A stretch of 61,853 nucleotides of DNA. Source: an uncultured Ignavibacteriales bacterium. GTDB taxonomy: Bacteria; Zixibacteria; MSB-5A5; GN15; JACZUZ01. A program made the translations under genes and the position numbers. The notes beneath the pieces were generated by a model. The model did no database searches, had not been told where the DNA came from, and saw only the letters and a list, made by a program, of their open reading frames with translations. The DNA lies in assembly GCA_964516945.1 (NCBI GenBank), contig CAZFAL010000001.1, forward strand, positions 1 to 61,853, in the 5' to 3' direction. Position 1 is the first letter of the stretch; each line of letters begins with the position of its first letter. Positions 36,103-51,339 of this stretch are shown here, one piece after another.

Positions 36103-37200
36103 TTAGAAAAAGCTCAATATCTCGTCTGTCACCCGCTCAATCGGGGCCACAATATCGGCAATCTCGCCTTCAACAATCGCTCGCGGCATCCCGTACACTA
36201 CACAGGAATCTTCATCCTGCGCAATCACCTGACCACCTTGCCGGTGCAATTCCTTACAGGCCTCAAAGCCGTCATTACCCATACCGGTGAGGACGATGCC
36301 AAGTGTTCTTTTACCGAACTTCTTCACAACCGAGTCCATCATGACATTCACACAGGGTTTGTACAAACTATCCGACGGAGTCTGTGTCAGGCGAATTATC
36401 GGCTTGCTGACGCCGGGAGTCAGCACCATGTGGCTGTCTCCGGGCGCAATATACACATGACCGGCCAGCGCCTCTTCACCATTGCGGGCTTCGGAAACTG
36501 TGACTTCAGAGAGCGAGTTCAGTCTGTCTGCCAGTGATTTGGTGAATTTGGGCGGCATATGCTGAACAATAAACATCGGGACCGGCAGGTTCTTTGGTAG
36601 TCTGGTGATAACTGTCTGCAACGCAGGCGGTCCACCTGTGCTGGAGCCAAGAGCAATCGCCTTGATGGCAAAGCGACGCCTGTCTGACTTTTTCGCAGGA
36701 GAAGTTGTAGCCGCAGAGGCAACCTGGTGTCCACTCTTCGTAGCTTTTTTCCAACTTAAACGTTGTCGCGCTCTGGCCATCAGAATAGACTTGCGACGGG
36801 CGATATTCTTGATTTTTTCCAGCAAGTCGTCTTTGATATTGACGATGTCCAGCGAGACAAACGAGAGTTCTTTTGGAATAAAGTCAACAGCGCCCAGGTC
36901 GAGCGCTTCAAGAGTTGTCTCGGCGCCTTCTGTTGTGATGCTGCTAACCATCATCACCGGAGTCGGCTCTTCCTCCATGATCTGCCGTAACGCGCTGAGA
37001 CCATCCATACGCGGCATCTCAACATCCATGGTAACAAGGTCAGGCTTGAGCTCTTTGACTTTCCTGACACCGTCTTCACCGTCTCGGCCCGTTCCAACAA
37101 CTTCAATTTCCGGATCGGACTCAAGCATCATGGTGATTGCTTTGCGCATAAACGCAGAGTCATCTACAACTAATACACGTGTTTTATTTGTCTTTGTCAT
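36103..37200 (-). CDS. cheB: Chemotaxis methylesterase/deamidase CheB (REC + CheB_methylest)
   Basis: REC domain (VLVVDDSAFMRK...DVEMPRMDG) and esterase domain (IALGSSTGGPPAL, ...GMGNDG...QDEDSCVVYGMPRA). Confidence 0.95.
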   Translation of the reverse strand: MTKTNKTRVLVVDDSAFMRKAITMMLESDPEIEVVGTGRDGEDGVRKVKELKPDLVTMDVEMPRMDGLSALRQIMEEEPTPVMMVSSITTEGAETTLEALDLGAVDFIPKELSFVSLDIVNIKDDLLEKIKNIARRKSILMARARQRLSWKKATKSGHQVASAATTSPAKKSDRRRFAIKAIALGSSTGGPPALQTVITRLPKNLPVPMFIVQHMPPKFTKSLADRLNSLSEVTVSEARNGEEALAGHVYIAPGDSHMVLTPGVSKPIIRLTQTPSDSLYKPCVNVMMDSVVKKFGKRTLGIVLTGMGNDGFEACKELHRQGGQVIAQDEDSCVVYGMPRAIVEGEIADIVAPIERVTDEILSFF

Positions 37201-37257
37201 TTTGTTATTCTCATATCTGCGGAATAAAGATAAACCATATGCAACAGTCGCTTCTGC

Positions 37258-39147
37258 CTACGACGCCATTTTTTGCGCCAACCCAAATATGCCCGCAACA
37301 TCAACGATTAATCGCACCCGCCCGTCTCCAAGAATTGTCGCTCCGGCGAGTCCTTCAATATTCCCGAACAATTTGCCGAGCGACTTAATCACTACTTCTT
37401 CCTGGCCAATTAAGTCGTCGACGACGAGTCCAAGACGGCTCTCGGCTAAACCGACGACGACGACGTTGCTGGACTTGTCCTCCGTCGGCTTCCAGTCTGC
37501 GGCGTCACGCAGTACACGCGGCAGGAACAAGAGCGGCAACACCGAGTCACGAAGATGGATAACTTCTGTGCCATTGACATAGTTTATGTCTTTGCGCGTG
37601 ACATTGACAATTTCATGTACACTGGCCAGCGGAATGATGTATATATCATCATTCGCGCGCACCAATAGTCCCTGAATGATTGACAACGTCAACGGCAGCT
37701 TGATAGTGATTGTCGTCCCTTCACCACGGACCGATGCAATCTCAATCATGCCGTTGAGTTTTTCAATGTTGGAACGCACTACATCCATCCCAACACCTCG
37801 CCCGGAGACATCACTGACAACTTTTGCTGTTGAGAACCCCGGAGCAAAGATGAAGCGGAAAATCTCGCCCTCGGTCAACCGCTCAATCTCCGACTCCGAT
37901 GCAAGACCCCGCTCAACCGCCTTGCTCTTAATCGCCTCCAGATCAAGTCCTCTGCCGTCGTCCTTGATTTCAACAATAATATTTGAGCCCTGCGAATATG
38001 CGCTCAGGACAACACTGCCGGTCTCCGGTTTGCCGGCGGCCTTCCTCTCCTCAGGCGGCTCGATCCCATGGTCACAGGAATTTCTCACAAGGTGAACAAG
38101 CGGATCGCCGATTTCTTCAATGACTGTTTTGTCTAATTCTGTGCCTTCGCCTTCAAGTGTCAAATTAATTTTTTTGCCGGTCGATGAAGCCAGGTCACGC
38201 ACAACACGTGGAAAACGACTAAACACTTTTCCAATCGGAAGCATACGCAGTTTCATGACTGAATTCTGGAGTTCAGTGGTCACAAAACTGATTTGGGAAG
38301 TAATACCTGCTATTCGCTCTTGCGAGTCATGCTCAGATATTGAGCCCGCGGCAATTTCTGAATTAGCAGACAACAGACTGTTGCGACCAAGCACAAGTTC
38401 ACCGACGAGATTCATCAGTGAGTCAAGACGGTCAACACCAACCCGAACTGTCTGTTCTATCTTTCGTGCGCCACTCTGACGCCCGGCGTTCGTTGCAGAT
38501 TCTTTTGCTGTTCCGGTTGCAACATCAGCTTTTGCTGCCGAGGACTGCCCGGGCGTCGACTCATTGGCCAGCGCTTTCGCGAGCGCTTCCTGAATCTCAG
38601 CGTCAAAGGCAACTTCATCAAACTCTTCGCCGTCTTCTTCAGCTACTTCACTTTTCGCGGAGTCAGCAGACGTTTTCGGCTTTCCGGAGGCGGACTTGTC
38701 ATTCGCAGTTGCTTCTGAACTATTGATGCGTTCAAGTTCTGCAATCAACCCCGAAACATCCCGCTTCACGATTTTGTTATTGCGAACATCGTCAAGCAAC
38801 AGTTTCAAGTTGTCAAGCCCCTCAAGGAGCGCGTCCATTATGTGAGCTTCAACGTGGATCTCCGCCTTGCGTAAGCGATTGAGCACATCTTCCATCTTGT
38901 GCGTCAGGTCGGTAATCTGATCTAATCCCAGAAAGCTGGAATTGCCCTTAATAGTGTGCGCGCCACGGAAAATACTATTGAGCAGCTCAAGGTCATCCGG
39001 TGACGTTTCCAGAGCCACAAGATCACTGTCAAGGGCATCAATCAAGTCGGCGGCTTCGACGAGGAAATCCTCAACGAAGTCCTGCATATCCTCCGGGACT
39101 TGCAGAGATTCGGTGTCAGTCGGTAGTTCTTCAACGTTTTGTTTCAT
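37258..39147 (-). CDS. cheA: Chemotaxis histidine kinase CheA (P1-linker-P3-P4-P5; no recognisable P2)
   Basis: Hpt domain (FRGAHTIKGNSSFLG). A low-complexity linker of about 100 aa. Dimerisation and HATPase domains (IKDDGRGLD, SGRGVGMDVV). A C-terminal CheW-like domain. Confidence 0.95.
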   Translation of the reverse strand: MKQNVEELPTDTESLQVPEDMQDFVEDFLVEAADLIDALDSDLVALETSPDDLELLNSIFRGAHTIKGNSSFLGLDQITDLTHKMEDVLNRLRKAEIHVEAHIMDALLEGLDNLKLLLDDVRNNKIVKRDVSGLIAELERINSSEATANDKSASGKPKTSADSAKSEVAEEDGEEFDEVAFDAEIQEALAKALANESTPGQSSAAKADVATGTAKESATNAGRQSGARKIEQTVRVGVDRLDSLMNLVGELVLGRNSLLSANSEIAAGSISEHDSQERIAGITSQISFVTTELQNSVMKLRMLPIGKVFSRFPRVVRDLASSTGKKINLTLEGEGTELDKTVIEEIGDPLVHLVRNSCDHGIEPPEERKAAGKPETGSVVLSAYSQGSNIIVEIKDDGRGLDLEAIKSKAVERGLASESEIERLTEGEIFRFIFAPGFSTAKVVSDVSGRGVGMDVVRSNIEKLNGMIEIASVRGEGTTITIKLPLTLSIIQGLLVRANDDIYIIPLASVHEIVNVTRKDINYVNGTEVIHLRDSVLPLLFLPRVLRDAADWKPTEDKSSNVVVVGLAESRLGLVVDDLIGQEEVVIKSLGKLFGNIEGLAGATILGDGRVRLIVDVAGIFGLAQKMAS

Positions 39148-39790
39148 TGGACATCTTTATCAGGTTGTCAATACCGGCTTGATCAGTATGCTTAATCTCC
39201 ATGTCAGCATGCGGATCAAACGCCCGGTCTTTTCGTTTCTTCTTTTCAGCGGACTTTGCCTGCTTATCTGAATCTCCAACGAGTCCGTCGTAATCCCCAA
39301 GTATTTCAGCAATTTTGTCGTCAACGTCCTCCAATAAACTCGCGGCATGGTTGATTTGCTGGGTGGTTATATCCTGGAACTGGAGAGCATCCATGATAGT
39401 GAATGCGTCATTCTGAGAGCGGTTGGCAATTTCCTCTGCGCTTTCCAATAGCCCGACTATCGTGGAGCTGTCTTCTTTTGTGTCAGCCAGAGAGTTCAAC
39501 GCTTCGTTCAGATGCTTGATTATTTCCACCTGCTGAGCGGAGATATTCTCGACCATGTCCATTACACGATGCGCGGCCTGTTCTGTCTGCGAACTGATTC
39601 TGTCTAAATGCGTGGTCGCTTTAGGCAGGTTCTCTCTGGTATCTGTCAATGGTCCCTGAATCTCCCGCAAACTATGCGCGAGATCTTCAATAGTGCTCTT
39701 CAACGCTCCCAACCCTCTCTTGAGACTACCGCTTTGCGCCATCGGATTAGCGCCACTACCAGCGGCCTCTGTCTTCTTCTTGGCGGTCAT
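39131..39790 (-). CDS. cheZ: CheZ-family CheY-P phosphatase
   Basis: Helical protein with the LQFQDITTQQINH motif (compare the DFQDLTGQ catalytic region of CheZ) and the C-terminal peptide DQAGIDNLIKM (compare the CheZ CheY-binding tail). It lies immediately downstream of cheY. Confidence 0.65.
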   Translation of the reverse strand: MTAKKKTEAAGSGANPMAQSGSLKRGLGALKSTIEDLAHSLREIQGPLTDTRENLPKATTHLDRISSQTEQAAHRVMDMVENISAQQVEIIKHLNEALNSLADTKEDSSTIVGLLESAEEIANRSQNDAFTIMDALQFQDITTQQINHAASLLEDVDDKIAEILGDYDGLVGDSDKQAKSAEKKKRKDRAFDPHADMEIKHTDQAGIDNLIKMSNETKR

Positions 39791-39791
39791 C

Positions 39792-40172
39792 TCAGGATCC
39801 CCCTTTAAGGACTTCGTCGATTTTCGACTTGAGTGTATCCGGTGTGAACGGCTTCACGATATAATTATTCACTCCCGCCTTCAACGCCTCCACAATGTCT
39901 TCCTTTACCGACCGCGTGGTGACCATCAACACCGGTATTTTCGCATGGTTCGCGTTACTGCGCATATTTGTTACAAACGACAAACCGTCCATTTCAGGCA
40001 TATTCCAGTCTGTAATAACAAAGTCTATCTTTTCGGTTTCCATCTTCGCGAGAGCGTCTTTCCCATGCTCCGCCTCGATAACGTCCGTGTAACCCGCCCT
40101 GCCAAGCGTATTGATGATTATCCGACGCATAGTCGGGGAATCATCCACGGCAAGAATTTTCATGTCAGCCAT
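39792..40172 (-). CDS. cheY: Chemotaxis response regulator CheY
   Basis: Single REC domain of 126 aa: KILAVDDSPTMRRII...FVITDWNMPEMDG...NNYIVKPFT. Confidence 0.93.
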   Translation of the reverse strand: MADMKILAVDDSPTMRRIIINTLGRAGYTDVIEAEHGKDALAKMETEKIDFVITDWNMPEMDGLSFVTNMRSNANHAKIPVLMVTTRSVKEDIVEALKAGVNNYIVKPFTPDTLKSKIDEVLKGGS

Positions 40173-40201
40173 AATCCTATCTCCACTATTACTATTATTT
40201 T

Positions 40202-40579
40202 TCAGCCATCAATGTATTTCGTAACTTCAGCGAGAAGCGTATCCGGACGAAACGGCTTTACAAGATATGAGGTCGCTCCAACTTCCATACCGCGCTCCCG
40301 GTCTTCACTTCCTTCCTCAGAAGACAAAATGATTATTGGCGTCTCTTTGTGCGCCTCATCATTGCGCAATGTTCCGATAAGCGTATAGCCATCTACATTC
40401 GGCATGTTCAAATCAGTGATGACCATACTGATATCTCCGTCAACACCCGAGATTTTCTCCATCGCATCCATTCCGTCACAAGCTGTAATAACTTCATACC
40501 CCTTGTTTTTCAATGCGAATGACACAAATTTGACAACAGTCATTGAATCATCCACTACAACAATTCTTTTCTTATCCAT
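40202..40579 (-). CDS. Second CheY-like single-domain response regulator
   Basis: RIVVVDDSMTVVKF...MVITDLNMPNVDG...SYLVKPFRP; 125 aa. Confidence 0.85.
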   Translation of the reverse strand: MDKKRIVVVDDSMTVVKFVSFALKNKGYEVITACDGMDAMEKISGVDGDISMVITDLNMPNVDGYTLIGTLRNDEAHKETPIIILSSEEGSEDRERGMEVGATSYLVKPFRPDTLLAEVTKYIDG

Positions 40580-40591
40580 AACAGTTTCCGA

Positions 40592-41659
40592 CTATTTTGT
40601 GGCAAAGTTCTTTTGCGCCGCTTGTTTAGCTTTTATTTGAGCGAGTAACTCAAGGGCTTTCGTCGCGCCGCTTTTCTTCGCAGAAACAGCAGTGGTCGGC
40701 CGAGTCGCTCGTATTTCACTTCTTGCCATCGTAGATGCCTGTGAAGACACATGTGAAGACACCTGCGACGAAGACGACCGCGCATCGGCCCCTCGCTCCT
40801 TCTCACTTTCGTCCTTGACGTACACCAGCGCCCCGTTGTAATACTTCAGCTTAAACGCCTTCGAAATTCCGTGCAACGTTTCTGAATGTCCAATGAACAT
40901 GTGTCCACCGGTCGTGAGGGCCTGGTAGAATGCGCGCACAATTCTTCGCTTAACATCCTCAGAGAAATATATCATCACATTTCTACAGAAGATGACGTCC
41001 AGATTCTTGTATAGCGACAGTTTGTGCGTGTCATTCAAATTGAGTTGTACAAACTTCACGAGCGCCTTTACTTCACGCTTCACCTTGTACGAATCACCAT
41101 CCTTGTCGAAGAAGCGGCGCAGTACGTCCGGTTTTACATAGCGCAATGTCGGCCCCGCATATACTCCGGACCGCGCCTTTTGAAGGGCCTGCTCACTGAT
41201 ATCATTGGCAATGATTTCAATCTGCCAGCCGCTTTCACCATTTAGCGCATCCAGAATCAACATTGCCAGTGTATACGGTTCTTCACCGGTAGAACAACCC
41301 GCCGACCAGATTCGCAGTGTCTTGTTGCCGGAGCGCGTACGCTTCATCTCCAGAATTTCCGGCAACGCCGCCTTCGCAAAGGAATCCAGTTGCGGTTCAT
41401 TACGGAAATAGTATGTTTCATTTGTCGTGACAAGATTCATCAACTCGTTGAATTCTCGTTGCGACGCATCGTATTTCACCCGGTAGAAATAATCGCGAAA
41501 AGTCGCGACCCCGAGCTCATCCATTCGTTTCGCCAGTCGACTTTGAAGCAAATATAGTTTATTGTCAGCGAAATACATTCCCGCCTTCTCGTGAATGAAT
41601 TCACGCATGGTGCGAAAGTCTTCGATGCTCAATGTCTGTGTATCACCAACCGGTGGCAT
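40592..41659 (-). CDS. cheR: Chemotaxis methyltransferase CheR with a Ser-rich C-terminal tail of about 80 aa
   Basis: CheR N-domain plus SAM domain (LRIWSAGCSTGEEPYTLAM...DVIFCRNVMIYF). It is followed by a low-complexity tail (SSSSQVSSHVSSQAS...). Confidence 0.93.
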   Translation of the reverse strand: MPPVGDTQTLSIEDFRTMREFIHEKAGMYFADNKLYLLQSRLAKRMDELGVATFRDYFYRVKYDASQREFNELMNLVTTNETYYFRNEPQLDSFAKAALPEILEMKRTRSGNKTLRIWSAGCSTGEEPYTLAMLILDALNGESGWQIEIIANDISEQALQKARSGVYAGPTLRYVKPDVLRRFFDKDGDSYKVKREVKALVKFVQLNLNDTHKLSLYKNLDVIFCRNVMIYFSEDVKRRIVRAFYQALTTGGHMFIGHSETLHGISKAFKLKYYNGALVYVKDESEKERGADARSSSSQVSSHVSSQASTMARSEIRATRPTTAVSAKKSGATKALELLAQIKAKQAAQKNFATK

Positions 41660-41745
41660 TCCCGTGTCCTTTGCGCCTCGACGGCCATTTCTGAATCGTT
41701 CCCTGATGCTTCTTCTGTTTTATGCACAGATACAAACTGAAGTTC

Positions 41746-42126
41746 TCATACGTCATTACTTCTACCGGCGGCTTTTTCGACCGACTTGAACAGTTTCGGC
41801 ATACTGAATGGCTTGACAATATAATCGTCCACCCGTTGCTGTAGCGCTCGAATGGCGCTGTCAACTGACGGATAACCGGTAACCACAACAATCGGCTGGT
41901 CCGGCTTAACTTCTTTCATTCTGTCAATCAACGTGGCGCCATCCATCTCCGGCATCTTCAGGTCCGTCAGGACGACATTAAAGTCGCCGTTTTCGAATGC
42001 GCGGAGCGCTCTTTCTCCGTTGTCAACGATGGTAACGTCCCATTCACGCTCATTAAAGAAATCGTAAATCAGATCCCGGATAAGCAATTCGTCATCGACA
42101 ACCAATATGTTATTGCGCTTCATCAT
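41746..42126 (-). CDS. Orphan single-domain response regulator (REC only)
   Basis: ILVVDDELLIRDLI...VVLTDLKMPEMDG...DDYIVKPFS. It has a 4-nt overlap with the upstream HEAT-repeat gene. Confidence 0.85.
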   Translation of the reverse strand: MMKRNNILVVDDELLIRDLIYDFFNEREWDVTIVDNGERALRAFENGDFNVVLTDLKMPEMDGATLIDRMKEVKPDQPIVVVTGYPSVDSAIRALQQRVDDYIVKPFSMPKLFKSVEKAAGRSNDV

Positions 42127-44033
42127 GAAACACCTTTCTGTAGCTGAGCGAGAGCTTCATTGCGCGCTGTCTCTATCTCTGCGTCAGACGCCGACGTAAG
42201 GTTCTGCAAGAACGCTATTAGAGAATCATCTTTCATCTGCCCAAGAGCGTTGATGGCGGCCACGCGCACAGGCGTGTCACCATGCATTGCCTTCTCCTGG
42301 AGTAACGATATCGCTTCATCTGTACGAATCGCACACAAAGTAGAAATCACATGGAATTGAAGCAACACGTCATCATCCAGCAGAAACGGCTTGAGCGCTC
42401 TGACTGCTTCCTGCTTGTGGTGTTTTGCCATTTGCGTCATGGCCACTCGCTGCACCGCTTCGTTTTCATCGTTGATAAGTATCGCAAATGTTTCCACGCC
42501 AGGCGCCGTTCCCATCCGACACAACGCTTCCAACGCCGCCTTTCTGACATGCGGATCATCGTGCGACAATGCGCCTTTGAGCGGTTCAGCGACATTATTC
42601 TCGCCGATCCAGCCCAGGGCGCTGGCGGCCAGCCGTTGAGACTCAGGATTTGTGGATTCCAATTCCGCTGTGAAGTAATCCACAACCCGTTGCCCGCCGA
42701 TTGTTACGAGAGCGCCAACACACGCCTCACGGACATCCGTGAACTCATCAGTGAGTCCACTCAATATTGAACTGACCGCTCCCTCCTCGCCGATCCAACC
42801 AATGCCACGATAAGCTACCGCGCGCACATGTCCGACCGGGTCTTTCAACATTTCTGTCAATGCCTGCAAGGAGATAGCGTCACCTATCCTGCCAAGAATG
42901 GACGCTACCCGAATCCGGACTTCCGGCTCGTCGGATTTTGCCAACGCCACCATGCGGTTACTGGATTCGGGACGCATACAATTAAGTAGCGCATCGAGTA
43001 AAAGCAGCTTGTCACAGTCTTTGCAGGTTTCAATCTGTTTGAGAATCAACTCGTCAAGATTCGAGTGGATATTGCCGCAGTGTTCAACTAACCGTGACCA
43101 GATATCATCCGCGACCTTCCCGACTGATTTCAGTAGTTCCTGCGCAAGAGCTTCGTCTCGCCAAAGGTCCTCGTTGTGAAGAGCAAAGTCTGCAACCACG
43201 TCGTCGTTTTCGACTAAGCCGGCAATGACACACTCCCGCAAGCGCTCGGCTGAGAGGTAATTATTGAGCTCAGCAAGACTACCGTCCGTCATTTTCAAAG
43301 CCGCCTTGAATGCTTCGCCGGCTATTGCCAGAGATTCATCATTCACTAATTTCGCTACCTCTTGCAATGCGCGTGGTGAACCAATCGCTCCGAGCGCTTC
43401 TGAGGCGACAAATGACAGAAGCGCATCACCTGATTTCAGATGCGATACAAGGAACGGTATCGCCTCCGGGTCCTCAATCCTACCCAGCGCTTCAATCGCC
43501 CGGGGACGCACATCGGGAATCTTCTCTCCGGCGGCAATCAGCGCCGTCGTTGCGGCAGGATTTCGCAATAATCCCAGCGCTTCTGCGGCGCTACAGCAGA
43601 CATTGATATTCTCATCCCAGAGCAACTGGCAGAGCGGCTCAACCGCGCGACTGTCCTCAATAAGCCCGAGCACATCCGCCACAAACTTGCGAACATCGTG
43701 ATCATCATGACCAATCCATTGCAAAAGCGCAGGGACGGCATCCGGACCGATACGCACCAGAATCTCGGCCGCCAGATTGCGGGTTGTAATGTTTTCGGCG
43801 CCAAGAAACTGCGACAGCAACGCTGTAGTAGTTTCACCTTTCACTTGAGAGAGCGCATCTGCGGCCAATTCACGGATATTGGCGCTACTGTCCTCAAGTG
43901 ACATCACCAGACCGGCAATCGCCTCATCGGAGTCAATCGTCGACAACTCTTCAACTGCCTGCTCACGTATCGTGACGTCTTCGGATTGGAGCTGGTCTAA
44001 CAACTCAGCAACATGTTCTACTGTTTCATCCAT
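42123..44033 (-). CDS. HEAT-repeat (PBS-lyase-type) protein, 636 aa
   Basis: More than 12 tandem units of the D..VR..A..ALG.IGD..A...L type, for example DHDVRKFVADVLGLIEDSRAVEPL and DPHVRKAALEALCRMG. Confidence 0.8.
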   Translation of the reverse strand: MDETVEHVAELLDQLQSEDVTIREQAVEELSTIDSDEAIAGLVMSLEDSSANIRELAADALSQVKGETTTALLSQFLGAENITTRNLAAEILVRIGPDAVPALLQWIGHDDHDVRKFVADVLGLIEDSRAVEPLCQLLWDENINVCCSAAEALGLLRNPAATTALIAAGEKIPDVRPRAIEALGRIEDPEAIPFLVSHLKSGDALLSFVASEALGAIGSPRALQEVAKLVNDESLAIAGEAFKAALKMTDGSLAELNNYLSAERLRECVIAGLVENDDVVADFALHNEDLWRDEALAQELLKSVGKVADDIWSRLVEHCGNIHSNLDELILKQIETCKDCDKLLLLDALLNCMRPESSNRMVALAKSDEPEVRIRVASILGRIGDAISLQALTEMLKDPVGHVRAVAYRGIGWIGEEGAVSSILSGLTDEFTDVREACVGALVTIGGQRVVDYFTAELESTNPESQRLAASALGWIGENNVAEPLKGALSHDDPHVRKAALEALCRMGTAPGVETFAILINDENEAVQRVAMTQMAKHHKQEAVRALKPFLLDDDVLLQFHVISTLCAIRTDEAISLLQEKAMHGDTPVRVAAINALGQMKDDSLIAFLQNLTSASDAEIETARNEALAQLQKGVS

Positions 44034-44076
44034 AGCGCTCTCCTTGCATTGACGGCTTCCTATTCACATGCGCTGA

Positions 44077-44484
44077 TTATTGCACCGATGTGGCAGAGCT
44101 GTAAGAAGCGATAGCCTCTTCTTCGGTTTGGTAGATTTCAAAGATATGTGACAATTGTGTGATTTCGAAAATCTCCGTCACATAGGCGGCCAAATTTGAC
44201 ATCGTCAATCGGCCATGCTTCAATCTTGTTTCTTTCATCAATGACACAAGCGCGCCGAGTCCGGAACTGTTGATAAAGTCAACCTTTGTCAAATTCAGAT
44301 GAATGTGCACATTGTTGCCCTGAAATTCCTGCTGCACCTGCTCCTTGAGCGCTGCGCCCGATGCAAGATCAAGACGACCGGACAGCGCTAACACTGTCAC
44401 GTTTCCAGACTGGTTTTTTGCGATTTTCATGTTTCCTCCTGTTGCCCTTCTCGGCGACATTAGAGCGCCGGGCTTGATTATCAT
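44077..44484 (-). CDS. STAS-domain anti-sigma-factor antagonist (RsbV/SpoIIAA-like)
   Basis: VTVLALSGRLDLASGAALKEQV...KVDFINSSGLGALVSL, which carries the conserved phosphorylatable Ser context. There is an ATGA overlap with the upstream kinase gene. An alternative start exists at 44430. Confidence 0.85.
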   Translation of the reverse strand: MIIKPGALMSPRRATGGNMKIAKNQSGNVTVLALSGRLDLASGAALKEQVQQEFQGNNVHIHLNLTKVDFINSSGLGALVSLMKETRLKHGRLTMSNLAAYVTEIFEITQLSHIFEIYQTEEEAIASYSSATSVQ

Positions 44485-44933
44485 GTCGTGTGTTTCGTTG
44501 CAATATCGTTTGTAAAAACTTTGTCACTAAATATGAGGCGAACAGATAAACCGCCGCCGTCAACCGCGGTCAGGACGACATCGTTAGCGCGACCGTACAT
44601 CAAGTTGACTCCGCGACCTGTTTCATCCAGCGCTGTCGGCTCACGTCGCTGTTGGATGCTTGCTATGCCCCCCTGCCCTTCATCGATGATATCGGCAATT
44701 ACTGAATCGTGATTAACCGCAACTCGCAATTTCACCTGCTTGGCCGGGTCCAGACGATTTCCATGGAGCGCCGCGTTGTTAAACGCCTCTGAGACACACA
44801 GTTGAATGTCGCGCGCCCTGTCTTCCGTTATTCTGTTTTCACTCAGGAAAGACGTAAGATCTTCGAACATCTCCGCTTCGGACCGTATTACAGACGGATA
44901 GCTCTTTTCGAATTTGCAAGGAGCGCCCATCAA
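44481..44933 (-). CDS. RsbW/SpoIIAB-like serine kinase (anti-sigma-factor-type HATPase)
   Basis: A 150-aa protein with an N-box-like CVSEAFNNAALHGN and a G-box-like IIDEGQGG. It sits between the PP2C and STAS genes with 4-nt overlaps on both sides. Confidence 0.8.
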   Translation of the reverse strand: MMGAPCKFEKSYPSVIRSEAEMFEDLTSFLSENRITEDRARDIQLCVSEAFNNAALHGNRLDPAKQVKLRVAVNHDSVIADIIDEGQGGIASIQQRREPTALDETGRGVNLMYGRANDVVLTAVDGGGLSVRLIFSDKVFTNDIATKHTT

Positions 44934-46327
44934 GAACCTCCCTCGCTATCGTCCTTTAGCAGACTCTTGACACGAATCTGCATAACCGTAAAATCATCCT
45001 GTATATCTGCCTCGGCGCCACGAATAAATGAGTTGATCGAAGAGCGCAATGAATTACAGAATGCTTGCGGCGCTTCATCAGAGCGCCTCAGAACAAATTC
45101 TTTTGTTCTCTCCCGTCCAAAGAGCTCACCTGTCTTGCTTTCCGATTCGGTGATACCATCGCTAAAAACCGTTATCGTGTCAGCGGGGGCTATTGCGACT
45201 TCTTCGTCAGCAAAGCGCAATCCTTCAAACTGGCCGACAATCGTTCCCCCTTTTGCCAGCTCATTGATTGTGCCGGTCGCATTGTTGTAGTGCAACGCCG
45301 GTACGTGACCTCCGTTGCAATAGCACAATGTCCCGTTCTGCATATCGAATTTGCCGAACCAGATTGTCGCAAACATTGCCCTGTCTTTGATTATCCCCTC
45401 TGACAGCGTGTCATTCAACCGGCCGGCAAGTTCCGCAACAGCCATTTCCGGCTCATAGCGTAACAATGACTTAATAATCCCGGCGCAGGCGGACATCACC
45501 AAAGCCGAGCCGACACCCTTGTTGGAGACATCACCGAGGATGACCATGAACTTGTTCGCCGGCAAAGGAATTATCTCATAGAAATCGCCGCCAACTTCAC
45601 GAGCCGCGGCATAGACAACACCGATTTCAACTCCGGGATGGCTGAGCGCCGCATCGGGCAGGATAGTCTCCTGCACCTGCCGGGCGATGGAAAGCTCCTG
45701 CTCCATCCGTTGCTTCTGGAGCGCTTCAGCAAGCAGGCGTGAGTTTTCAATTGCCACACTCAGAAAATGGTTAAGCGATTCAAGTATTTCTTTATCTGCG
45801 GCGTCGAATTGTTGGCCCCGCTCCTTATTGAGCGCAACGACCATTCCATACTTGCCTTTTCTGGACACGATCGGCGCCGAGAGTAAGCTGTTCACGCGGA
45901 CTGCAGCGCCGGGGGCAATCCCGCTACCGTTGACAAGATTGTTCCCGTCGTTCTCTTTGTAAGAATCAAGTAATGTCGTTTGCTCGGCGACATAGAGCTG
46001 ATCGAGAAGCGCCTCATCCACACCCCAGGCGATTTTTGTCCGTAACTCTCCGTCTTCTTCAAGAAAGATAGCCCCCACTTCACCTGAGACAGCGCGCAAT
46101 GTCATGTCCATCATCACCGACATGACCCTGTCAGTGTCCATGATGGACGCGATAATCGCTCCCATCGTCTGAATATCATTCAGCCGTTGTTTCTGACGTT
46201 CAAGCTCCAATTGCAATTGAAACACTTGTTCCTGCTTTGCAACAGAACCGGCGTCGTCTGTGATTCGCTGAAATCCGGCGCCGATGTGGCTTTTTGCTCC
46301 TTCTTCCATCCTCTGTGCGTCGGACAA
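44930..46327 (-). CDS. GAF-domain PP2C (SpoIIE/RsbU-type) serine phosphatase
   Basis: N-terminal coiled coil, then a GAF-like region (VMSVMMDMTLRAVSGEVGAIFLEEDGELR...), then a PP2C domain (EVGGDFYEII...VILGDVSNKGVGSALVMS...NGGHVPAL...VFSDGITE). The track start is a TTG at 46327; an ATG alternative is at 46309. Confidence 0.85.
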   Translation of the reverse strand: MSDAQRMEEGAKSHIGAGFQRITDDAGSVAKQEQVFQLQLELERQKQRLNDIQTMGAIIASIMDTDRVMSVMMDMTLRAVSGEVGAIFLEEDGELRTKIAWGVDEALLDQLYVAEQTTLLDSYKENDGNNLVNGSGIAPGAAVRVNSLLSAPIVSRKGKYGMVVALNKERGQQFDAADKEILESLNHFLSVAIENSRLLAEALQKQRMEQELSIARQVQETILPDAALSHPGVEIGVVYAAAREVGGDFYEIIPLPANKFMVILGDVSNKGVGSALVMSACAGIIKSLLRYEPEMAVAELAGRLNDTLSEGIIKDRAMFATIWFGKFDMQNGTLCYCNGGHVPALHYNNATGTINELAKGGTIVGQFEGLRFADEEVAIAPADTITVFSDGITESESKTGELFGRERTKEFVLRRSDEAPQAFCNSLRSSINSFIRGAEADIQDDFTVMQIRVKSLLKDDSEGGS

Positions 46328-46523
46328 ACGCCCGATTTACTTAACCACCTCAAGAGCTCCATTTTCATGCATCTGCGCAAGTGGCTTGACTGCCATACAC
46401 ATTCCGGGGCGACGCATGGAACAATCCAACCCCGCGGCCAGACAAAGCGCCGCTTTGGTTCAAAAGGAAATCATTGGGGCCGATGATACCCGTTGACGGG
46501 ATAACGGTGTGGTAAAGCGGGAA

Positions 46524-47897
46524 CTACTTTTTCTTAAACTTGATACGTAGCGGGACACCCTCGAAATCAAACCGCTCACGAAGACGATTTGCGAGAAAGC
46601 GGATGTAGCTTTTCTGAATCTTTTCAGGCCGGTTACAGAAGAAAACAAATGTGGGTGGGCAGATTTCCGGCTGGCTGACATAGGTCAAGCGAACTTCTTT
46701 CCCTTTGTCGGAGGCCGGTGGACGACGCTGTAAGGCGTCTTCGAGGAGCTCATTCAGCTCAGAGACTGAATACTTTCGCGAAGAGCGTTCGTGGATTTCG
46801 CGGGCGATAGACAATGTCTTGCGGGCGCGTAGCCCTTCAAGCGCTGAGACAAATATGATTGGCACAAAAGACAAATCACCGAGAGCGTCACGATAATCAA
46901 CCGTCAGGCGGTCCGCTGTCTTGGAGTCCTTATCAACCAGGTCCCACTTATTGACCACCAGCGCCATGCCTCTGCGCGTGGCCTTCGCCTGTTGCAGGAT
47001 TCGTTTGTCCTGCGAGGTTATTCCGGCGGTAGCATCGATGACCACAAGCGCCACATCACACGCATCCAGCGCCCGCGCCGCTCTGAGATTTGTGTAGAAT
47101 TCAATATCTTCAATAACTTTCATTTTCCGCCTCAGACCGGCGGTGTCAACGAGCGTATAGCGCTGCCCTTCATATATACACGGCGAATCAATCGCATCAA
47201 TCGTCGTACCGGCTATATCCGAGACGATATTTCGTTCATCTCCCAGTATACAATTGACAAGACTGGATTTGCCGACGTTCGGTCGCCCGATAACTGCCAC
47301 GCGCAAAGACGCATCCTGAACATCAGTCTTCGGCGCCTTCGGAAGCGCCGCAACTACCCTGTCGAGCAGGTCACCGATATTTCTGCCACCCGCGGCGCTG
47401 ACCGCCACCGGTTCACCGAGGCCCAGACGCTGCAACTCGAAAACCTCCAGTTCCTGAGCGTCTGTGTCTGCTTTATTGGCGGCGAGCACAGTTGGTTTTC
47501 CGGAGCCCTGCAAATAGCGGGCGATTTGTCCGTCAACCGAAGCGATCGTAACCTGGGCGTCAACGACAAACAAAACCACGTCCGCTTCAGCCACCGCCAT
47601 TTCGGCTTGTTGCATCACTTTCTTGTCGAAGTGATTCTCAGAATTCGGTATCATGCCGCCGGTGTCAATCAAATAGAAGTCTCGCCCTATCCATTCGCAG
47701 ACCGCATAGTTCCTGTCTCGCGTCACCCCCGGCGTGTCAGCGACAATTGCAAACCGTCGTTTGATAAACCGATTGAATAATGACGACTTACCGACATTCG
47801 GCCGCCCGACAATCGCCACCAGTGGCAGTGATGTCCGCCGGGCGTGTGTAAAGCCCGTTTCCGGTGTCGCCGGCTCAATGTGTGTTTCGTCGCTCAT
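46524..47897 (-). CDS. der: Ribosome-associated GTPase Der (EngA)
   Basis: Two G domains (VAIVGRPNVGKSSLFN; VAVIGRPNVGKSSLVN) and a KH-like C-terminus. I preferred the ATG at 47897, which does not overlap the upstream gene, over the track start at 47996. Confidence 0.93.
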   Translation of the reverse strand: MSDETHIEPATPETGFTHARRTSLPLVAIVGRPNVGKSSLFNRFIKRRFAIVADTPGVTRDRNYAVCEWIGRDFYLIDTGGMIPNSENHFDKKVMQQAEMAVAEADVVLFVVDAQVTIASVDGQIARYLQGSGKPTVLAANKADTDAQELEVFELQRLGLGEPVAVSAAGGRNIGDLLDRVVAALPKAPKTDVQDASLRVAVIGRPNVGKSSLVNCILGDERNIVSDIAGTTIDAIDSPCIYEGQRYTLVDTAGLRRKMKVIEDIEFYTNLRAARALDACDVALVVIDATAGITSQDKRILQQAKATRRGMALVVNKWDLVDKDSKTADRLTVDYRDALGDLSFVPIIFVSALEGLRARKTLSIAREIHERSSRKYSVSELNELLEDALQRRPPASDKGKEVRLTYVSQPEICPPTFVFFCNRPEKIQKSYIRFLANRLRERFDFEGVPLRIKFKKK

Positions 47898-47907
47898 AAT
47901 CCTTGCA

Positions 47908-49470
47908 TCATAGTCCCTGTACCGATTCTGAAAACGCCACAACTCGATTTTCCCGCTCGCCATGTTTTTGCCTGCCCAATGCAGAGCGTTGCGCATATTC
48001 TCCGAGCCGCAGAGCTTCTTTCAATGTCTCAACGAAATCATAACTACCAACGATTACTTCCCTGTCTGATTTCCTGCGGAACTCATCGAGAGTCAGATTA
48101 TCGATAAACAAATCATCGTTATTCAGACAGTTCGGCGGCAAAAGAACAATATCGTTTTTATCCGAGAGCTGAGTTGCCGCCTCAAGTAAATCGGCTCCGG
48201 AAAGCAATCCGGAGATAGTCACCGTCCCACCCCAGAACTTGTTCTTGACCGCCTTGAACAACAAGTCAATTCCCAACTCACGCGCTTGTGGCGTGATTTC
48301 TGTTTCTAACCACTCATGGGCGGATTCGCCGGTAAAACCGATCAGCTTGCGTTTCGGTCCTGACGCCGACTTCAGCGCTTTCTTGAGAAATTGCTTTCGG
48401 CGATTAAATGTCGTGGCGAACAAACGACACATACCGATGCCATTCTCGAATTGCGCTATTGATTCATAACTATTCATTCGGGGAAATCTACGTTTGGCGA
48501 TTGTGTAGAATTCATCCGCCGGCCAGACAAACCGCGTACCTAATTCCTCGTGGAAGCGCTCCTGCAGTTTCTCGATTCTATCAATAAGTTCAGCAGCCGC
48601 GGCTTTGCTATAGATACTGATTTCCGGCAAATTGTCCCGGTATTTCGTCAACCCGACCGGGGCTAAAGCCAAAGTCTCAACACCGGGATTCAACGCCGAA
48701 AGTTCACGTATTGTCCTGTCCAACTCCGGGCCGTCATTGATTCCCGGACACAACACAACCTGCGCATGGACAGTAATGCCGCCGTCAATTAGCTGTTTGA
48801 GACGCGGCATAATCGGCGCCAGCAATTCATTCTTGAGCATACAGCGGCGCAATGTGTCATTGGTGGCATGCACCGAAATATACATCGGCGAAAGACGTTG
48901 CTCGATAATCCGCTCAATATCTTCATCACTGGTGTTTGAGAGCGTGACAAAATTGCCATGCGTGAAACTATAGCGATAGTCCTCATCCATAATATACAAC
49001 GAGCGCCGCATCCCTTGCGGTTGTTGCATCACAAAGCAAAAAATGCATTCGTTCTTGCAGGTGCGTATGCCGCTCTGCCTGAATGTCAGCCCCAGCTCTT
49101 CAATGGTCACATCTTCAAACTCAAAGAGCGACTGTTCACCGGTTGTTGATTCAAAGAGCAAATCCAACTCCGGCTCGGCCATTTTGAAATGAAAGTCAAT
49201 TGTGTCACGCACTGTCTCGTCATTGATTGAGACCAGCCGGTCTCCGGGGCGCACATAGGCGAACAGCGGCGAGTGACGCTCGACTTCAAGCAACTCCAGC
49301 CCGACCGGTCGCACGACTTGTGTCTTGTGGACTGCAGTTGCCTGCTTCGCAGCAGTCTCCCCTGTCGCTCCGGCCAGTTGACGGATTGCCGCCGAGGCCT
49401 GCAATTGCGGGGAGTAACTTCTCGGAGACTCGTCGGGCGCTTCCGAAGCGATATGTGTTTCCTGTGCCAC
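47908..49470 (-). CDS. PDZ-domain / radical-SAM-like protein (DUF512 family)
   Basis: The Cys cluster CKNECIFC (CxxxCxxC) follows a PDZ-like N-terminal region. The position upstream of der is common for this family. The start is GTG. Confidence 0.7.
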   Translation of the reverse strand: MAQETHIASEAPDESPRSYSPQLQASAAIRQLAGATGETAAKQATAVHKTQVVRPVGLELLEVERHSPLFAYVRPGDRLVSINDETVRDTIDFHFKMAEPELDLLFESTTGEQSLFEFEDVTIEELGLTFRQSGIRTCKNECIFCFVMQQPQGMRRSLYIMDEDYRYSFTHGNFVTLSNTSDEDIERIIEQRLSPMYISVHATNDTLRRCMLKNELLAPIMPRLKQLIDGGITVHAQVVLCPGINDGPELDRTIRELSALNPGVETLALAPVGLTKYRDNLPEISIYSKAAAAELIDRIEKLQERFHEELGTRFVWPADEFYTIAKRRFPRMNSYESIAQFENGIGMCRLFATTFNRRKQFLKKALKSASGPKRKLIGFTGESAHEWLETEITPQARELGIDLLFKAVKNKFWGGTVTISGLLSGADLLEAATQLSDKNDIVLLPPNCLNNDDLFIDNLTLDEFRRKSDREVIVGSYDFVETLKEALRLGEYAQRSALGRQKHGERENRVVAFSESVQGL

Positions 49471-49498
49471 TTTATCTATTCTCTAACTTTCAGCCATC

Positions 49499-49518
49499 AA
49501 AAAACCCCTCTGCGGGGT
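49499..49518 (-). terminator. Rho-independent terminator downstream of tRNA-Gly, only 28 nt before the next start codon
   Basis: Minus strand reads ACCCC-GCAGA-GGGGU followed by UUUUUU. Confidence 0.55.
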
Positions 49519-49590
49519 CAGACAACACTGCATTGCACGCTGTCATATTATACCTATGCGCTCTCGCACAAGAACAAAATCCTGCAAAAA

Positions 49591-49662
49591 AGCGGGCGAC
49601 CAGATTCGAACTGGCGACGTCAAGCTTGGGAAGCTTGCATTCTACCCCTGAATTACGCCCGC
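49591..49662 (-). tRNA. tRNA-Gly (anticodon CCC); CCA not encoded
   Basis: Hand-folded cloverleaf. Acceptor stem GCGGGCG/CGCCCGC. D arm ATTC-AGGGGTA-GAAT. Anticodon arm CAAGC-TTCCCAA-GCTTG. T arm GCCAG-TTCGAAT-CTGGT. Discriminator base U. Confidence 0.9.
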
Positions 49663-49696
49663 ATATATCCCCGCCTGCAAATCTGCGAGGTCAGAC

Positions 49697-49724
49697 AATA
49701 TAGTCCAGTAAAGATGGCTGGCAA
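49697..49724 (-). promoter_or_regulatory. Sigma70-like promoter for tRNA-Gly
   Basis: Minus strand reads TTGCCA-N16-TATATT, ending about 35 nt before the tRNA 5' end. Confidence 0.4.
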
Positions 49725-49758
49725 GAGATTTCGGTAAGTTGTTGAGTTTTATGAGGTT

Positions 49759-50007
49759 CTAATCCCCGGCCTTGTCGCTCAGGTCTGAATTCGATATCGC
49801 CCGGCGACGGATCGACTCTGCATACCCCACTGAGTATCCAGACCACTGACCGCTTCCCGCCGCAGGGAAAAAATTATCATTATTGCTCATGACGCTATCA
49901 AGCATATAGCGCTGGAAATCGACAGCCGAATTAACAATCCCGCCTGCGCTGTCGCAGGCGCCTGCCCAATATGTCGCCAGGCACAGCAGTATTATCAGCA
50001 AAAGCAT
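49759..50007 (-). CDS. Small hypothetical secreted or lipoprotein-like protein (82 aa)
   Basis: Hydrophobic N-terminus (MLLLIILLCLATYWAGAC) with a marginal lipobox. I recognise no family. Confidence 0.35.
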   Translation of the reverse strand: MLLLIILLCLATYWAGACDSAGGIVNSAVDFQRYMLDSVMSNNDNFFPAAGSGQWSGYSVGYAESIRRRAISNSDLSDKAGD

Positions 50008-50122
50008 TCTCGTTAATCTTGCGTCATACCATCATCCTCCCCTCGTGGCTCAATGAATTGTCAAGTCGACAAATACTCAGCCGCCTATGCTCAGTTCGTA
50101 CGAAGGTTGGCAGGCGCTGTCA

Positions 50123-50170
50123 GGATGGAGATGAAGATTGAGATGGAGGTTGAAATTGAGATGGAGATGG
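50123..50170. repeat. Purine-rich (plus strand) / G-free pyrimidine-rich (sense strand) repeat tract
   Basis: ggatggagatgaagattgagatggaggttgaaattgagatggagatgg. The minus strand contains no G over 48 nt. It is related in word content to 21594-21648. Confidence 0.7.
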
Positions 50171-50370
50171 CGCTGACAGAGCAGGCGCTTGTCAGACTGT
50201 CAGCGGACAATATAAATACTGCAAACAGGGCGCCGAATACTGCGTCGCAGGTAACCACTGAGTCTCAGGGAACTTACGAGCGCAACAGCGCTTCACATTC
50301 GGCGCTCGCTACGAATCACAGCCCCATGCCCCGTAGAAAATGACGATAGCGTCCGCCACGGATGATGACG

Positions 50371-51339
50371 CTACACTATCTGTTTATCAGCGTTACGATT
50401 GACAATTCGCACAACAATGATTGAGATTTCGTAGAGCACATACATCGGCGCTCCGACAAGCACCTGCGTAAACACATCCGGCGGAGTGATAATCGCCGCG
50501 CAAATCAGGATAAGCACAACCGCAACACGTCTGCCCTTCGGTAGTGTCTCCGAACGCAATATACCCATCTTCGCCAGAAAAAAAGACACGACCGGTAGAT
50601 TGAAGGTCAAACCAAAAGACAAGACCATCATTCCGGCAAATGTCAAATAACTGCCGACCGTGATGATTGGTGTCAACGCGCCCTCGCCATAGCTGACAAG
50701 ATATGTTATCGCGAACGGTAGAATATATTGGTAGCAAAACCAGGCGCCGATGCCAAAAAGGGCGCTGGAGGCAATCACAGCCGGGAGAATAAATATCTTT
50801 TCTGTCTTATAGAGCCCGGGCGCAATAAACGCCCAGAGCTGATAGAAGACAAAAGGAATAATCGCAAACAAGCCCGCAAAAATAGAAACTACCATATAGG
50901 CGTAAAATGAGCCGGTGATAGTTGTCACATGCAATCGCAAATCACCGAGCGGCTTGATTACGAACGCAAAAATCTCCTCGCCAAAATACAGCGCGACAGC
51001 CGCCGCAACAATCACACCAATAATTATCTTCAGCAGTCGCCAGCGTAATTCTTCGAGATGATCCAGAAACCCCAGTGAATCCTTGTCGTCACCACCACCG
51101 TCACCAGAGGCCACTGCCACCGGGGGCGTTGTCCCGGCGCCGCCACCTTCGCGCGCAGGAGATGTCTCAGAGCCCGGATTTCCACCAACAGCAACCGGAG
51201 CGCTCTCAGCGCCGGAGCTGTAGTAATCAGCCCGGTCAACGCGACGCGGAATCGGACGACCACCGCCTGGCGCCTCGCCGGAAATATCACCACGGGAACT
51301 ATCTTTGTTGTCTTTACTTTCGGAAGTCATAACGCACAA
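50371..51339 (-). CDS. tatC: Twin-arginine translocase subunit TatC, with an N-terminal Gly/Pro-rich extension of about 85 aa (start uncertain)
   Basis: TatC core from LGFLDHLEELRWRLLKIIIGV... with 6 TM segments. No tatA or tatB lies adjacent. Confidence 0.88.
   Translation of the reverse strand: MCVMTSESKDNKDSSRGDISGEAPGGGRPIPRRVDRADYYSSGAESAPVAVGGNPGSETSPAREGGGAGTTPPVAVASGDGGGDDKDSLGFLDHLEELRWRLLKIIIGVIVAAAVALYFGEEIFAFVIKPLGDLRLHVTTITGSFYAYMVVSIFAGLFAIIPFVFYQLWAFIAPGLYKTEKIFILPAVIASSALFGIGAWFCYQYILPFAITYLVSYGEGALTPIITVGSYLTFAGMMVLSFGLTFNLPVVSFFLAKMGILRSETLPKGRRVAVVLILICAAIITPPDVFTQVLVGAPMYVLYEISIIVVRIVNRNADKQIV

Follow-up and report, generated by a model that had tools for sequence, protein, structure and literature searches.

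Gene content of the locus

The window analysed here, i.e., the whole 61,853-nt stretch at the start of contig CAZFAL010000001.1 (assembly GCA_964516945.1) of an uncultured Zixibacterial bacterium, is a flagellar supercluster whose chemotaxis (che) operon is headed by a partner-switching module. This module consists of a GAF-PP2C phosphatase, a serine kinase and a STAS protein, and is followed by a HEAT-repeat protein and a single-domain receiver, referred to as REC0. All module genes lie on the minus strand. The first-pass annotation, made from the sequence alone, had placed these five genes before cheR on one strand, with which Pfam and the coordinates agree, and profile searches assigned the SpoIIE, HATPase_c_2, STAS, HEAT_2 and Response_reg families, and GAF via phmmer. 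The genes and features from the head of the operon onwards are as follows.

44930-46327, minus strand: GAF-PP2C serine phosphatase of SpoIIE/RsbU type (Pfam SpoIIE E 4.5e-39); the open reading frame (ORF) opens at TTG 46327
44481-44933, minus strand: RsbW/SpoIIAB-like serine kinase, HATPase_c_2 (Pfam E 4.5e-18)
44077-44430 (ORF to 44484), minus strand: STAS protein of anti-sigma-antagonist type, 117 amino acids (aa) (Pfam STAS E 9e-21)
42123-44033, minus strand: HEAT-repeat protein, 636 aa (Pfam HEAT_2 E 4.7e-75, nine stretches)
41746-42126, minus strand: REC0, single-domain receiver (Pfam Response_reg E 1e-27)
40592-41659, minus strand: cheR (Pfam)
40202-40579, minus strand: cheY-like, REC-only (Pfam)
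39792-40172, minus strand: second cheY, REC-only (Pfam; 131 bits to the E. coli CheY model)
39131-39790, minus strand: cheZ (Pfam 50.7 bits, cutoff 30.7)
37258-39147, minus strand: cheA (Pfam)
36103-37200, minus strand: cheB (Pfam)
35916-35950, minus strand: intrinsic-terminator-like hairpin and U-run after cheB (z = -2.5)
34452-35831, minus strand: PAS histidine kinase (Pfam)
33067-34455, minus strand: REC-sigma54-activator-HTH regulator (Pfam)

The STAS start is almost certainly ATG 44430, because an AGGAGG ribosome-binding site, the 117-aa JGI gene call and the length of the orthologues (116-120 aa) all agree with it. Therefore the kinase and STAS genes are separated by a gap of 50 nt, and not joined by the 4-nt overlap (44481-44484) described earlier; the other junctions stand as described. 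The kinase gene overlaps the PP2C gene (44930-44933), indicative of translational coupling, and REC0 overlaps the HEAT gene by 4 nt, which indicates the same kind of coupling; HEAT and REC0 lie in front of cheR, with 86 nt between REC0 and cheR. The PP2C start is probably ATG 46309, because of a promoter geometry common to the relatives. In these relatives the median gaps range from -4 to 27 nt between PP2C and the receiver and from 12 to 28 nt between cheR and cheB, and wider gaps occur only before PP2C, the histidine kinase and motA. No intrinsic terminator was predicted between REC0 and cheR, and the one noticed earlier after cheB was predicted again as a hairpin with a U-run.

The Che set of the operon comprises CheA, two CheY-like proteins, CheZ, CheR and CheB. 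A separate cheW or mcp gene was found neither in the operon nor in the window, and therefore both must lie elsewhere; no Hpt gene was found apart from the CheA P1 domain. About 60 window ORFs were examined with Pfam and none carries a sigma-factor or FlgM domain, as the first-pass annotation had also observed. The CheZ-family phosphatase (39131-39790) is conserved in the Zixibacterial che operon. CheZ is generally viewed as a proteobacterial component.

Conservation of the module across Zixibacteria

Relatives were found by a scan with one genome per species, which gave 249 relatives, and 80 loci were taken. The counts come from tblastn, ORF-level BLAST and a profile hidden Markov model (HMM) of the kinase, and each locus was counted where its contig reaches. 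The closest relative by the HEAT-protein scan is a Zixibacteriota metagenome-assembled genome with 65% identity, and the HEAT orthologues form a tight family of 633-640 aa, named Zixibacteria/GN15. PP2C, kinase and STAS stand upstream of HEAT in 66 of 66 loci, the kinase stands between PP2C and STAS in 73 of 73 (profile HMM), and the six che genes are all downstream in 55 of 58. By tblastn a REC0 homologue follows HEAT at every covered locus but one (L076), in which HEAT overlaps cheR directly; a stricter adjacency filter gives 69 of 74. The usual order is der, module, cheRYYZAB, histidine kinase, sigma-54 regulator and motAB. With protein identities of 31-65% across the ordered set, this arrangement is far beyond chance and is conserved phylum-wide. 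The ordered set thus recurs in dozens of species-level genomes, and the proposal that the module is joined to the che operon is borne out by this synteny, whose loss in relatives would have spoken against it.

A clean che-less arrangement was found only in L067, in which the che cassette is truly absent and switch, HEAT and REC0 are followed by the histidine kinase, the sigma-54 regulator, motAB and flgBC. The same locus has PP2C and kinase fused in one 576-aa protein, the only such fusion. Several other apparent exceptions were rejected. L003 had seemed to carry the module without che genes, and it proved to be a rearranged or chimeric contig in which a ClpC N-terminus is fused in frame to HEAT; it also has a truncated cheB fragment after cheY (560-3169; JADFNA010000016.1), is probably a misassembly or a rearranged population variant, and is unfit as gene-order evidence. 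L047 reflects a recent cheR-cheB deletion by comparison with L035 (92% nucleotide identity), with a 172-nt cheB remnant. L055, L066 and L076 had appeared kinase-less, and their kinase was recovered by the profile HMM.

The window lacks a further receiver-like gene, of diverged sequence and about 155-260 aa, that about 20 loci have between the first receiver and cheR (L027, L028, L033-L035, L044, L047, L050, L052, L055-L057, L059, L061-L066, L068-L073, L075).

Predicted sigma-28-type promoters

The sigma-28 consensus used was TAAA-N15-GCCGATAA with 12 scored positions, a match was allowed at most two mismatches, and shuffled sequences served as control. Three sites in the window are listed here.

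46317-46343, minus strand: P1, degenerate sigma-28-type, TAAG-N15-TCCGACGC, 7 nt upstream of ATG 46309
44689-44715, minus strand: P2, sigma-28-type, TAAT-N15-GCCGATAT, inside the kinase ORF, about 260 nt upstream of the STAS ATG
32867-32893, minus strand: sigma-28-type promoter of motAB, TAAA-N15-GCCGATGC, 2/12 mismatches, the positive control for the motif

Matches were found in the der-PP2C spacer of 51% of loci (1.4% in shuffled sequences) and upstream of motA in 73% (2.7%), as against 2% upstream of the histidine kinase (1.6%). When the 300 nt before each of 16 genes were scanned, three genes were enriched over the shuffles, namely PP2C (51% vs 6%), STAS (78% vs 3%) and motA (71% vs 3%), and the remaining genes were all at 11% or less. 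The window as a whole holds 29 occurrences of the motif where 12.8 are expected, some of them ahead of flgN and motA or close to the flagellin gene, which speaks for use of FliA by the organism. The link to late flagellar expression suggested by the first-pass annotation is supported by these sigma-28-type promoters.

P1 of the window is homologous in layout to TAAG-N15-GCCGAACC-7nt-ATG in the closest relative (L002). Among the relatives, TAAA-N15-GCCGATA[ACG] followed after 7-9 nt by the in-frame PP2C ATG was present in 44 of 67 loci, compared with 2.3% of control windows, and consensus-like P1 sites with short leaders occur in divergent lineages including the che-less L067. The distance of 7-9 nt from box to ATG implies a leaderless PP2C mRNA.

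P2 matches the consensus with 2/12 mismatches, and its bases encode V73-N74 and A80-D81-I82 of the kinase. Because conservation of the protein alone could yield such a match, the synonymous sites were examined. The codon of Ala80 is GCC in 49 of 49 sequences (background 39%), that of Asp81 is GAT in 42 of 49 (background 55%) and that of Ile82 is ATA in 30 of 46 (background 17%), while other conserved alanine columns of the kinase have mixed codons. When 811 conserved columns in five genes were compared, two P2 codons led the non-serine outliers. P2 is most economically explained as a functional sigma-28-type promoter, which would transcribe STAS, HEAT, REC and che without PP2C and kinase. P2 would then illustrate dual coding cleanly, its synonymous sites being frozen to GCCGATAT, and it predicts an effect on antagonist-to-kinase stoichiometry.

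The first-pass annotation had envisaged a single transcript of about 10 kb. In favour of continuity into the che genes, neither a promoter nor a terminator signal was found between REC0 and cheR, and the sigma-28 motif was absent there; the single transcript itself is made doubtful by the second predicted promoter within the kinase ORF, and judging from these motifs there is probably more than one transcript, with P2 adding STAS-HEAT-REC-che. A generic sigma-70 promoter and terminator scan of 32900-46700 gave no enrichment over shuffles, and no sigma-54 site (GG-N10-GC) was found in the window or in four sets of intergenic regions.

The partner-switch proteins

The phosphatase scores 134.8 bits with Pfam SpoIIE against a cutoff of 25, and its metal-binding motifs GDFY, GDVSnKG, DG.tE and DDfT are kept across 74 sequences. 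Pfam matches of its GAF region are sub-threshold; phmmer relates this region to the GAF domains of PDE6 and PDE5, with the best E value (3.8e-7) for PDE6. Among solved structures the closest is P. aeruginosa RssB (3es2), and Rv1364c and SiaA are also near. A derivation of the GAF-PP2C from the stand-alone GAF genes after cheB in Nitrospirota-type clusters was considered and rejected for want of any BLAST similarity.

The kinase reaches 65.9 bits with HATPase_c_2 (cutoff 27.4), its best match in the PDB is SpoIIAB (E 6e-8), and the N-box SEAF.NA..HGN, the G1 box D.G and the G2 box GRG are conserved. It scores under the SpoIIAB and RsbW equivalog cutoffs, and is therefore a family member and not an orthologue of SpoIIAB or RsbW. 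The STAS protein scores 74.1 bits with Pfam and 82.2 bits with NCBIfam TIGR00377 (cutoff 53.45), its best PDB match is SpoIIAA, and its serine motif FINSSGLG is at least 90% conserved in 79 sequences. Since all module proteins miss the equivalog cutoffs, they are members of their families and not orthologues of any characterised protein. The motifs of the switch proteins and of the receiver were compared over 66-80 orthologues. In mean distance, STAS is the slowest component of the switch (0.49) and the kinase the fastest of the whole block (1.36), with conservation of the kinase essentially confined to the catalytic boxes.

The domain content directly implies a complete kinase/phosphatase/STAS cycle with a GAF input domain, and from its conserved motifs the switch should be catalytically competent. 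The REC-PP2C-HATPase_c_2 fusion of the HsbR/CrsR type was not found, as the phosphatase carries GAF and the kinase is a separate gene. A cognate sigma factor in cis was found neither among the tested ORFs of the window nor in the conserved gene order of the 80 loci, and a sigma target may still be encoded elsewhere.

The HEAT protein and REC0

The AlphaFold2 model of the HEAT protein (predicted local distance difference test score 93.7) is an all-alpha solenoid, and Foldseek against the PDB returned only generic scaffolds (PP2A-A, CAND1, SF3B1 and karyopherins), which give no functional clue. Distant homologues occur in Nitrospirota/Thermodesulfovibrionales and other lineages. The relationship is collinear, e.g., residues 10-632 of the window protein align with residues 3-598 of that of L082 at 29% identity (E 8e-52). 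Searched with a Nitrospirota-type profile, this large family gave at least 1244 matches at E <= 1e-10, and Nitrospirota alone appear among the best 120 of these at least 1244 matches. The homologues of 655-685 aa stand directly upstream of cheR-cheB in all five cases examined, often overlapping, in the order REC-CheA-CheW-MCP-HEAT-CheR-CheB, where MCP is a methyl-accepting chemotaxis protein, sometimes followed by GAF and REC. None of these five non-Zixibacterial HEAT-cheR clusters has a partner switch. Two longer and weaker HEAT matches lie outside che clusters. Because homologues adjoin cheR in switch-less clusters of other phyla, the HEAT protein is, by its genomic context, primarily a Che accessory and not an obvious dedicated target of the switch. 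The first-pass annotation had named it as a candidate target, and this survives only with the correction that the five genes are not one unit of origin and that HEAT is found without the switch. From these contexts the HEAT-cheR pair looks ancestral, and the receiver between them and the partner switch in front look like Zixibacterial novelties.

Outside Zixibacteria, HEAT-cheR-cheB clusters often open with PatA_N-REC proteins and close with a stand-alone GAF protein of 273 aa and a single-domain receiver; the stretches in question are 11949-13146 of L082, 12163-13367 of L084 and 11116-12356 of L088. The HEAT genes of L084 and L088 are each overlapped at their start by the gene of a zinc-ribbon-REC protein. 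GAF, REC and HEAT hence recur together in che clusters, and the GAF of these clusters is not detectably homologous to the GAF of the Zixibacterial PP2C.

REC0 keeps the residues DD, D55, T83 and K105 in 78 sequences. Of its paralogues within the window it most resembles the sigma-54 regulator's receiver, with 76 bits as compared with 58 for the CheYs, and it has a TGY motif and best NCBIfam matches to FixJ, AtoC and NtrC. By these sequence features REC0 is NtrC/AtoC-like rather than CheY-like, and the second cheY encodes the classical CheY. The PAS kinase and sigma-54 regulator have AtoS/AtoC-, FlgS/FlgR- and FlbD-like NCBIfam matches, all under cutoffs, and this system is a possible phosphodonor for REC0. 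A specific relationship of REC0 with the receivers of the Nitrospirota-type clusters was also sought, and none was found.

Proposed function and alternative explanations

We favour, with some reserve, the view that the module is a motility-dedicated partner switch of the FliA regulon whose output is not a sigma factor encoded in cis. The block would be a phylum-wide late-flagellar operon transcribed by sigma-28 (FliA) polymerase from the two nested promoters P1 and P2. As the motifs suggest, the kinase would phosphorylate the STAS serine and PP2C would strip the phosphate, and GAF would couple the phosphatase activity to a cytoplasmic small-molecule or state cue. STAS, and not the kinase, would be the output, because it is the most conserved of the switch proteins, comes last in the order PP2C-kinase-STAS and would receive extra transcription from P2, and because outside its catalytic boxes the kinase has nothing conserved that would hint at a third partner. 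Unphosphorylated STAS would then act on motility signalling encoded in cis, the HEAT/REC0 adaptor and then Che. That the target is this adaptor in cis, through which unphosphorylated STAS would reach signalling at the level of CheR and CheA, is put forward only tentatively; in its favour, binding of HEAT proteins to receivers of CheY type is known from two systems, those of Cpc7 and OE2401F. A more specific form, in which the serine-phosphorylation switch is a direct, non-transcriptional input into chemotaxis, with STAS or the kinase docking on HEAT or the receiver and gating methylation or phosphate flow on a GAF-sensed metabolic cue, is considered unlikely.

Several points weigh against this picture. 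We infer every mechanistic step from sequence. P1 of the window mismatches the consensus at 5 of 12 positions and was kept on positional homology only. HEAT adjoins cheR without a partner switch in other phyla and so does not need the switch, and REC0 may belong to the neighbouring PAS-kinase/sigma-54 system and not to CheA. Mirror-tree partial correlations, whose values are weak, suggestive at best and confounded by evolutionary rate, were 0.43 for PP2C-kinase, 0.41 for PP2C-HEAT, 0.41 for HEAT-receiver and 0.33 for kinase-STAS, whereas STAS-HEAT (0.04) and STAS-REC0 (-0.04) give no support for contact between STAS and HEAT. Moreover, partner-switch operons are often transcribed by the sigma factor which they control, and this favours an output on sigma-28 or FlgM.

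In that explanation, which we regard as somewhat unlikely, the kinase is an anti-sigma-28 or STAS antagonises FlgM, the GAF cue tunes FliA, and HEAT and REC0 are unrelated Che accessories downstream. P1 and P2 are both sigma-28-type, and control of a partner-switch operon by its own regulated sigma is common, as in sigma-B autoregulation. SpoIIAB and RsbW, the best matches of the kinase, bind FliA-related sigmas of group 3; in P. aeruginosa FlgM is bound by HsbA, and the hsbA promoter of P. putida is RpoS-dependent and weakly FliA-dependent. It would fit as well that the window, otherwise rich in flagellar genes, gave no FlgM match. However, fliA or flgM is linked to the module in 0 of 80 loci, the HsbA-FlgM link was not reproduced in P. 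putida, and the order is phosphatase-kinase-STAS, not antagonist-kinase-sigma. The kinase is also the fastest-evolving protein and keeps only its catalytic boxes, which is unexpected if it grips a conserved sigma factor.

The affinities of REC0 (76 vs 58 bits, TGY/TGF motif) raise another explanation, namely that HEAT-REC0 serves the adjacent PAS kinase/sigma-54 system, and not CheA, as an output or sink branch, and that the switch modulates this flagellar-gene two-component system. The che-less L067, in which switch-HEAT-REC0 is directly followed by the kinase, the sigma-54 regulator and motAB, agrees with it. We consider it quite unlikely, as six che genes separate REC0 from the kinase in 55 of 58 loci, the distant homologues of HEAT adjoin cheR within che clusters, and a receiver identity of about 28% does not establish kinase specificity; the mirror-tree values with CheA, 0.33 for HEAT and 0.25 for REC0, also speak against it and are weak. 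Very unlikely, in our judgement, is co-expression only, in which the switch controls a conventional sigma factor or another non-motility target elsewhere and its position reflects shared timing or accident. Orphan RsbU/V/W sets do lie far from their targets in many genomes, sigma-less modules with no assigned target are common, and the HEAT-cheR pair exists independently of the switch. But the order is conserved at 31-65% identity (66 of 66 upstream, 55 of 58 downstream), the che genes lack a separate sigma-28 promoter and depend on promoters before or inside the switch genes, and in L067 the module has kept both a sigma-28 promoter and its position in the flagellar cluster although the che cassette is missing.

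Partner switches without a sigma target, and HEAT proteins in che clusters, are recurrent and poorly understood accessories of motility signalling. In an entire uncultured phylum both are joined here and head the main flagellar che operon, with promoters of flagellar type. Should HEAT, the receiver or Che be the target of the switch, chemotaxis would have a new input layer distinct from MCP-mediated sensing; should the target be sigma-28 or FlgM, the switch would replace or supplement the FlgM export checkpoint under the control of a ligand. The components are all small soluble proteins, so heterologous reconstitution is feasible though the organism is uncultured.

The flagellar surroundings

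Upstream of the module are der, a radical-SAM/DUF512 gene, tRNA-Gly, tatC and nrdR. Downstream of cheB, the PAS kinase and sigma-54 activator are followed by motAB, flgBC and fliE-J, and the supercluster continues with flgFGAHIJ, flgN, flgK, csrA, a flgL-like gene, fliW, glycosyltransferases and flagellin. At the Rfam gathering threshold, 35000-51000 contains tRNA-Gly only, with no riboswitch before the PP2C gene.

Further sigma-28-type sites were seen in the cluster. On the minus strand upstream of flgF there is a cysteine-rich ORF of 75 aa (21664-21891) with no Pfam match, and a site TCAA-N15-GCCGATA with one mismatch (21926-21901, minus strand) stops 9 nt before its ATG, the same leaderless layout as that of the PP2C gene. 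This ORF could be an unannotated small late-flagellar protein or the beginning of a long flgF leader. The flagellin gene (716-2896) is followed after 134 nt by a perfect TAAA-N15-GCCGATA (557-582, minus strand), presumably the promoter of the next gene, beyond the window edge, and a site with two mismatches (3306-3331, minus strand) lies about 410 nt upstream of the flagellin start.

Both fliW (11304-11954) and csrA (14233-14547) are present on the minus strand, the latter between flgK and the 644-aa flgL-like gene, and a FliW-CsrA-flagellin partner switch for flagellin translation is probably also encoded in the cluster. At 726 aa the flagellin is unusually long, and so is the flgL-like protein at 644 aa. 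The genes at 3470-11259 (minus strand), between fliW and flagellin, encode TPR-glycosyltransferases (838 and 1196 aa), an epimerase and a methyltransferase, and are candidates for flagellin glycosylation. The sole sizeable plus-strand gene of the flagellar region (22311-23711), between fliJ and flgF, encodes a protein with cohesin, FlgD-Ig and type IX secretion system C-terminal sorting domains, and breaks an otherwise co-directional cluster. Beyond the module, a 580-aa ORF (52189-53931, minus strand) matches no Pfam family at E <= 0.1 and shares about 160 nt with the CutA1-domain ORF at 51813-52346, so one of the two starts is probably miscalled.

Comparison with known systems

The statement of the first-pass annotation that no characterised system was known with this gene order proved too strong, considering CrsR/CrsA, hsbAR-hptB and HmpUVW for the switch, and Cpc7/CheY7 and OE2401F for HEAT with a receiver. 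In the HptB-HsbR-HsbA system of Pseudomonas (PA3345-3347 in P. aeruginosa), kinase and PP2C activities act on Ser56 of the STAS protein, and the outputs, FlgM, RpoS and diguanylate cyclases, bear on motility and biofilm. In P. putida a partner switch opens the flagellar operon hsbAR-hptB-fliK...flhB, whose promoter is weakly FliA-dependent. The Zixibacterial module shares with HsbR/HsbA the absence of a sigma factor in cis, a serine kinase and phosphatase working on STAS and the position at the head of a flagellar operon. However, HsbR has a receiver-domain input fed by HptB and a fused phosphatase-kinase, whereas the Zixibacterial module has a GAF input, separate proteins and no Hpt; the genes downstream are fliK-flhB in P. 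putida and HEAT, receiver and che genes in Zixibacteria. In Shewanella oneidensis the partner switch CrsR-CrsA is likewise encoded within a chemosensory cluster, as part of the che1 transcription unit. It differs in that CrsR, a REC-PP2C-kinase fusion, sequesters RpoS; the che1 system is of the non-flagellar F7 type, has MCPs and a CheW of its own and lacks a HEAT protein, and no sigma-28 promoters are described there.

The gene order btrU-btrW-btrV is phosphatase-kinase-STAS, as in Zixibacteria. STAS proteins that serve as output, and not as a sigma-releasing antagonist, are described for Bordetella BtrU/BtrW/BtrV, Nostoc HmpU/V/W, Rhodobacter RbaV/W/Y and Vibrio SypE/SypA, and STAS genes are documented in motility and chemotaxis operons; several of the systems named are linked with motility loci, with HmpUVW in the hmp motility locus of Nostoc. 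The Btr, Hmp, Rba and Syp systems have no GAF-PP2C and no CheR-adjacent HEAT protein and none heads a flagellar cheRYZAB operon; the comparison is at the level of shared domain families.

The sigB operon of Bacillus subtilis also has nested promoters, with an internal one just before rsbV, which is used by the alternative sigma factor and raises synthesis of the antagonist. That promoter also drives the kinase and the sigma gene, whereas P2 lies in the kinase gene, excludes the kinase and is followed by no sigma gene. Sigma-B autoregulation is described for this operon, and the relative synthesis of the partners shapes the response.

For the HEAT protein, a parallel in architecture is Che7 of Myxococcus xanthus, in which the HEAT protein Cpc7 is directly bound by the single-domain receiver CheY7. 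One gene (MXAN_6961) lies between mcp7 and cheR7, and the non-Zixibacterial HEAT clusters (CheY-CheA-CheW-MCP-HEAT-CheR-CheB) match this order. The Zixibacterial cluster likewise has HEAT and a single-domain receiver together among che genes, and this likeness is one of architecture; Che7 controls development, not flagella, and has no partner switch. The haloarchaeal HEAT_PBS protein OE2401F binds CheY, CheD and CheC2 and is needed for motor switching. It is encoded in a che/fla region and is archaeal, shorter and tied to CheF and the archaellum, and no orthology is implied.

No literature on the regulation of Zixibacterial motility was found. Compared with the systems above, it is new that the principal flagellar che operon begins with the combination of a GAF-PP2C, a separate kinase, a STAS protein, a CheR-family HEAT protein and an NtrC-like receiver; the conservation of this combination throughout a candidate phylum and the predicted promoter embedded in the kinase ORF are new as well.

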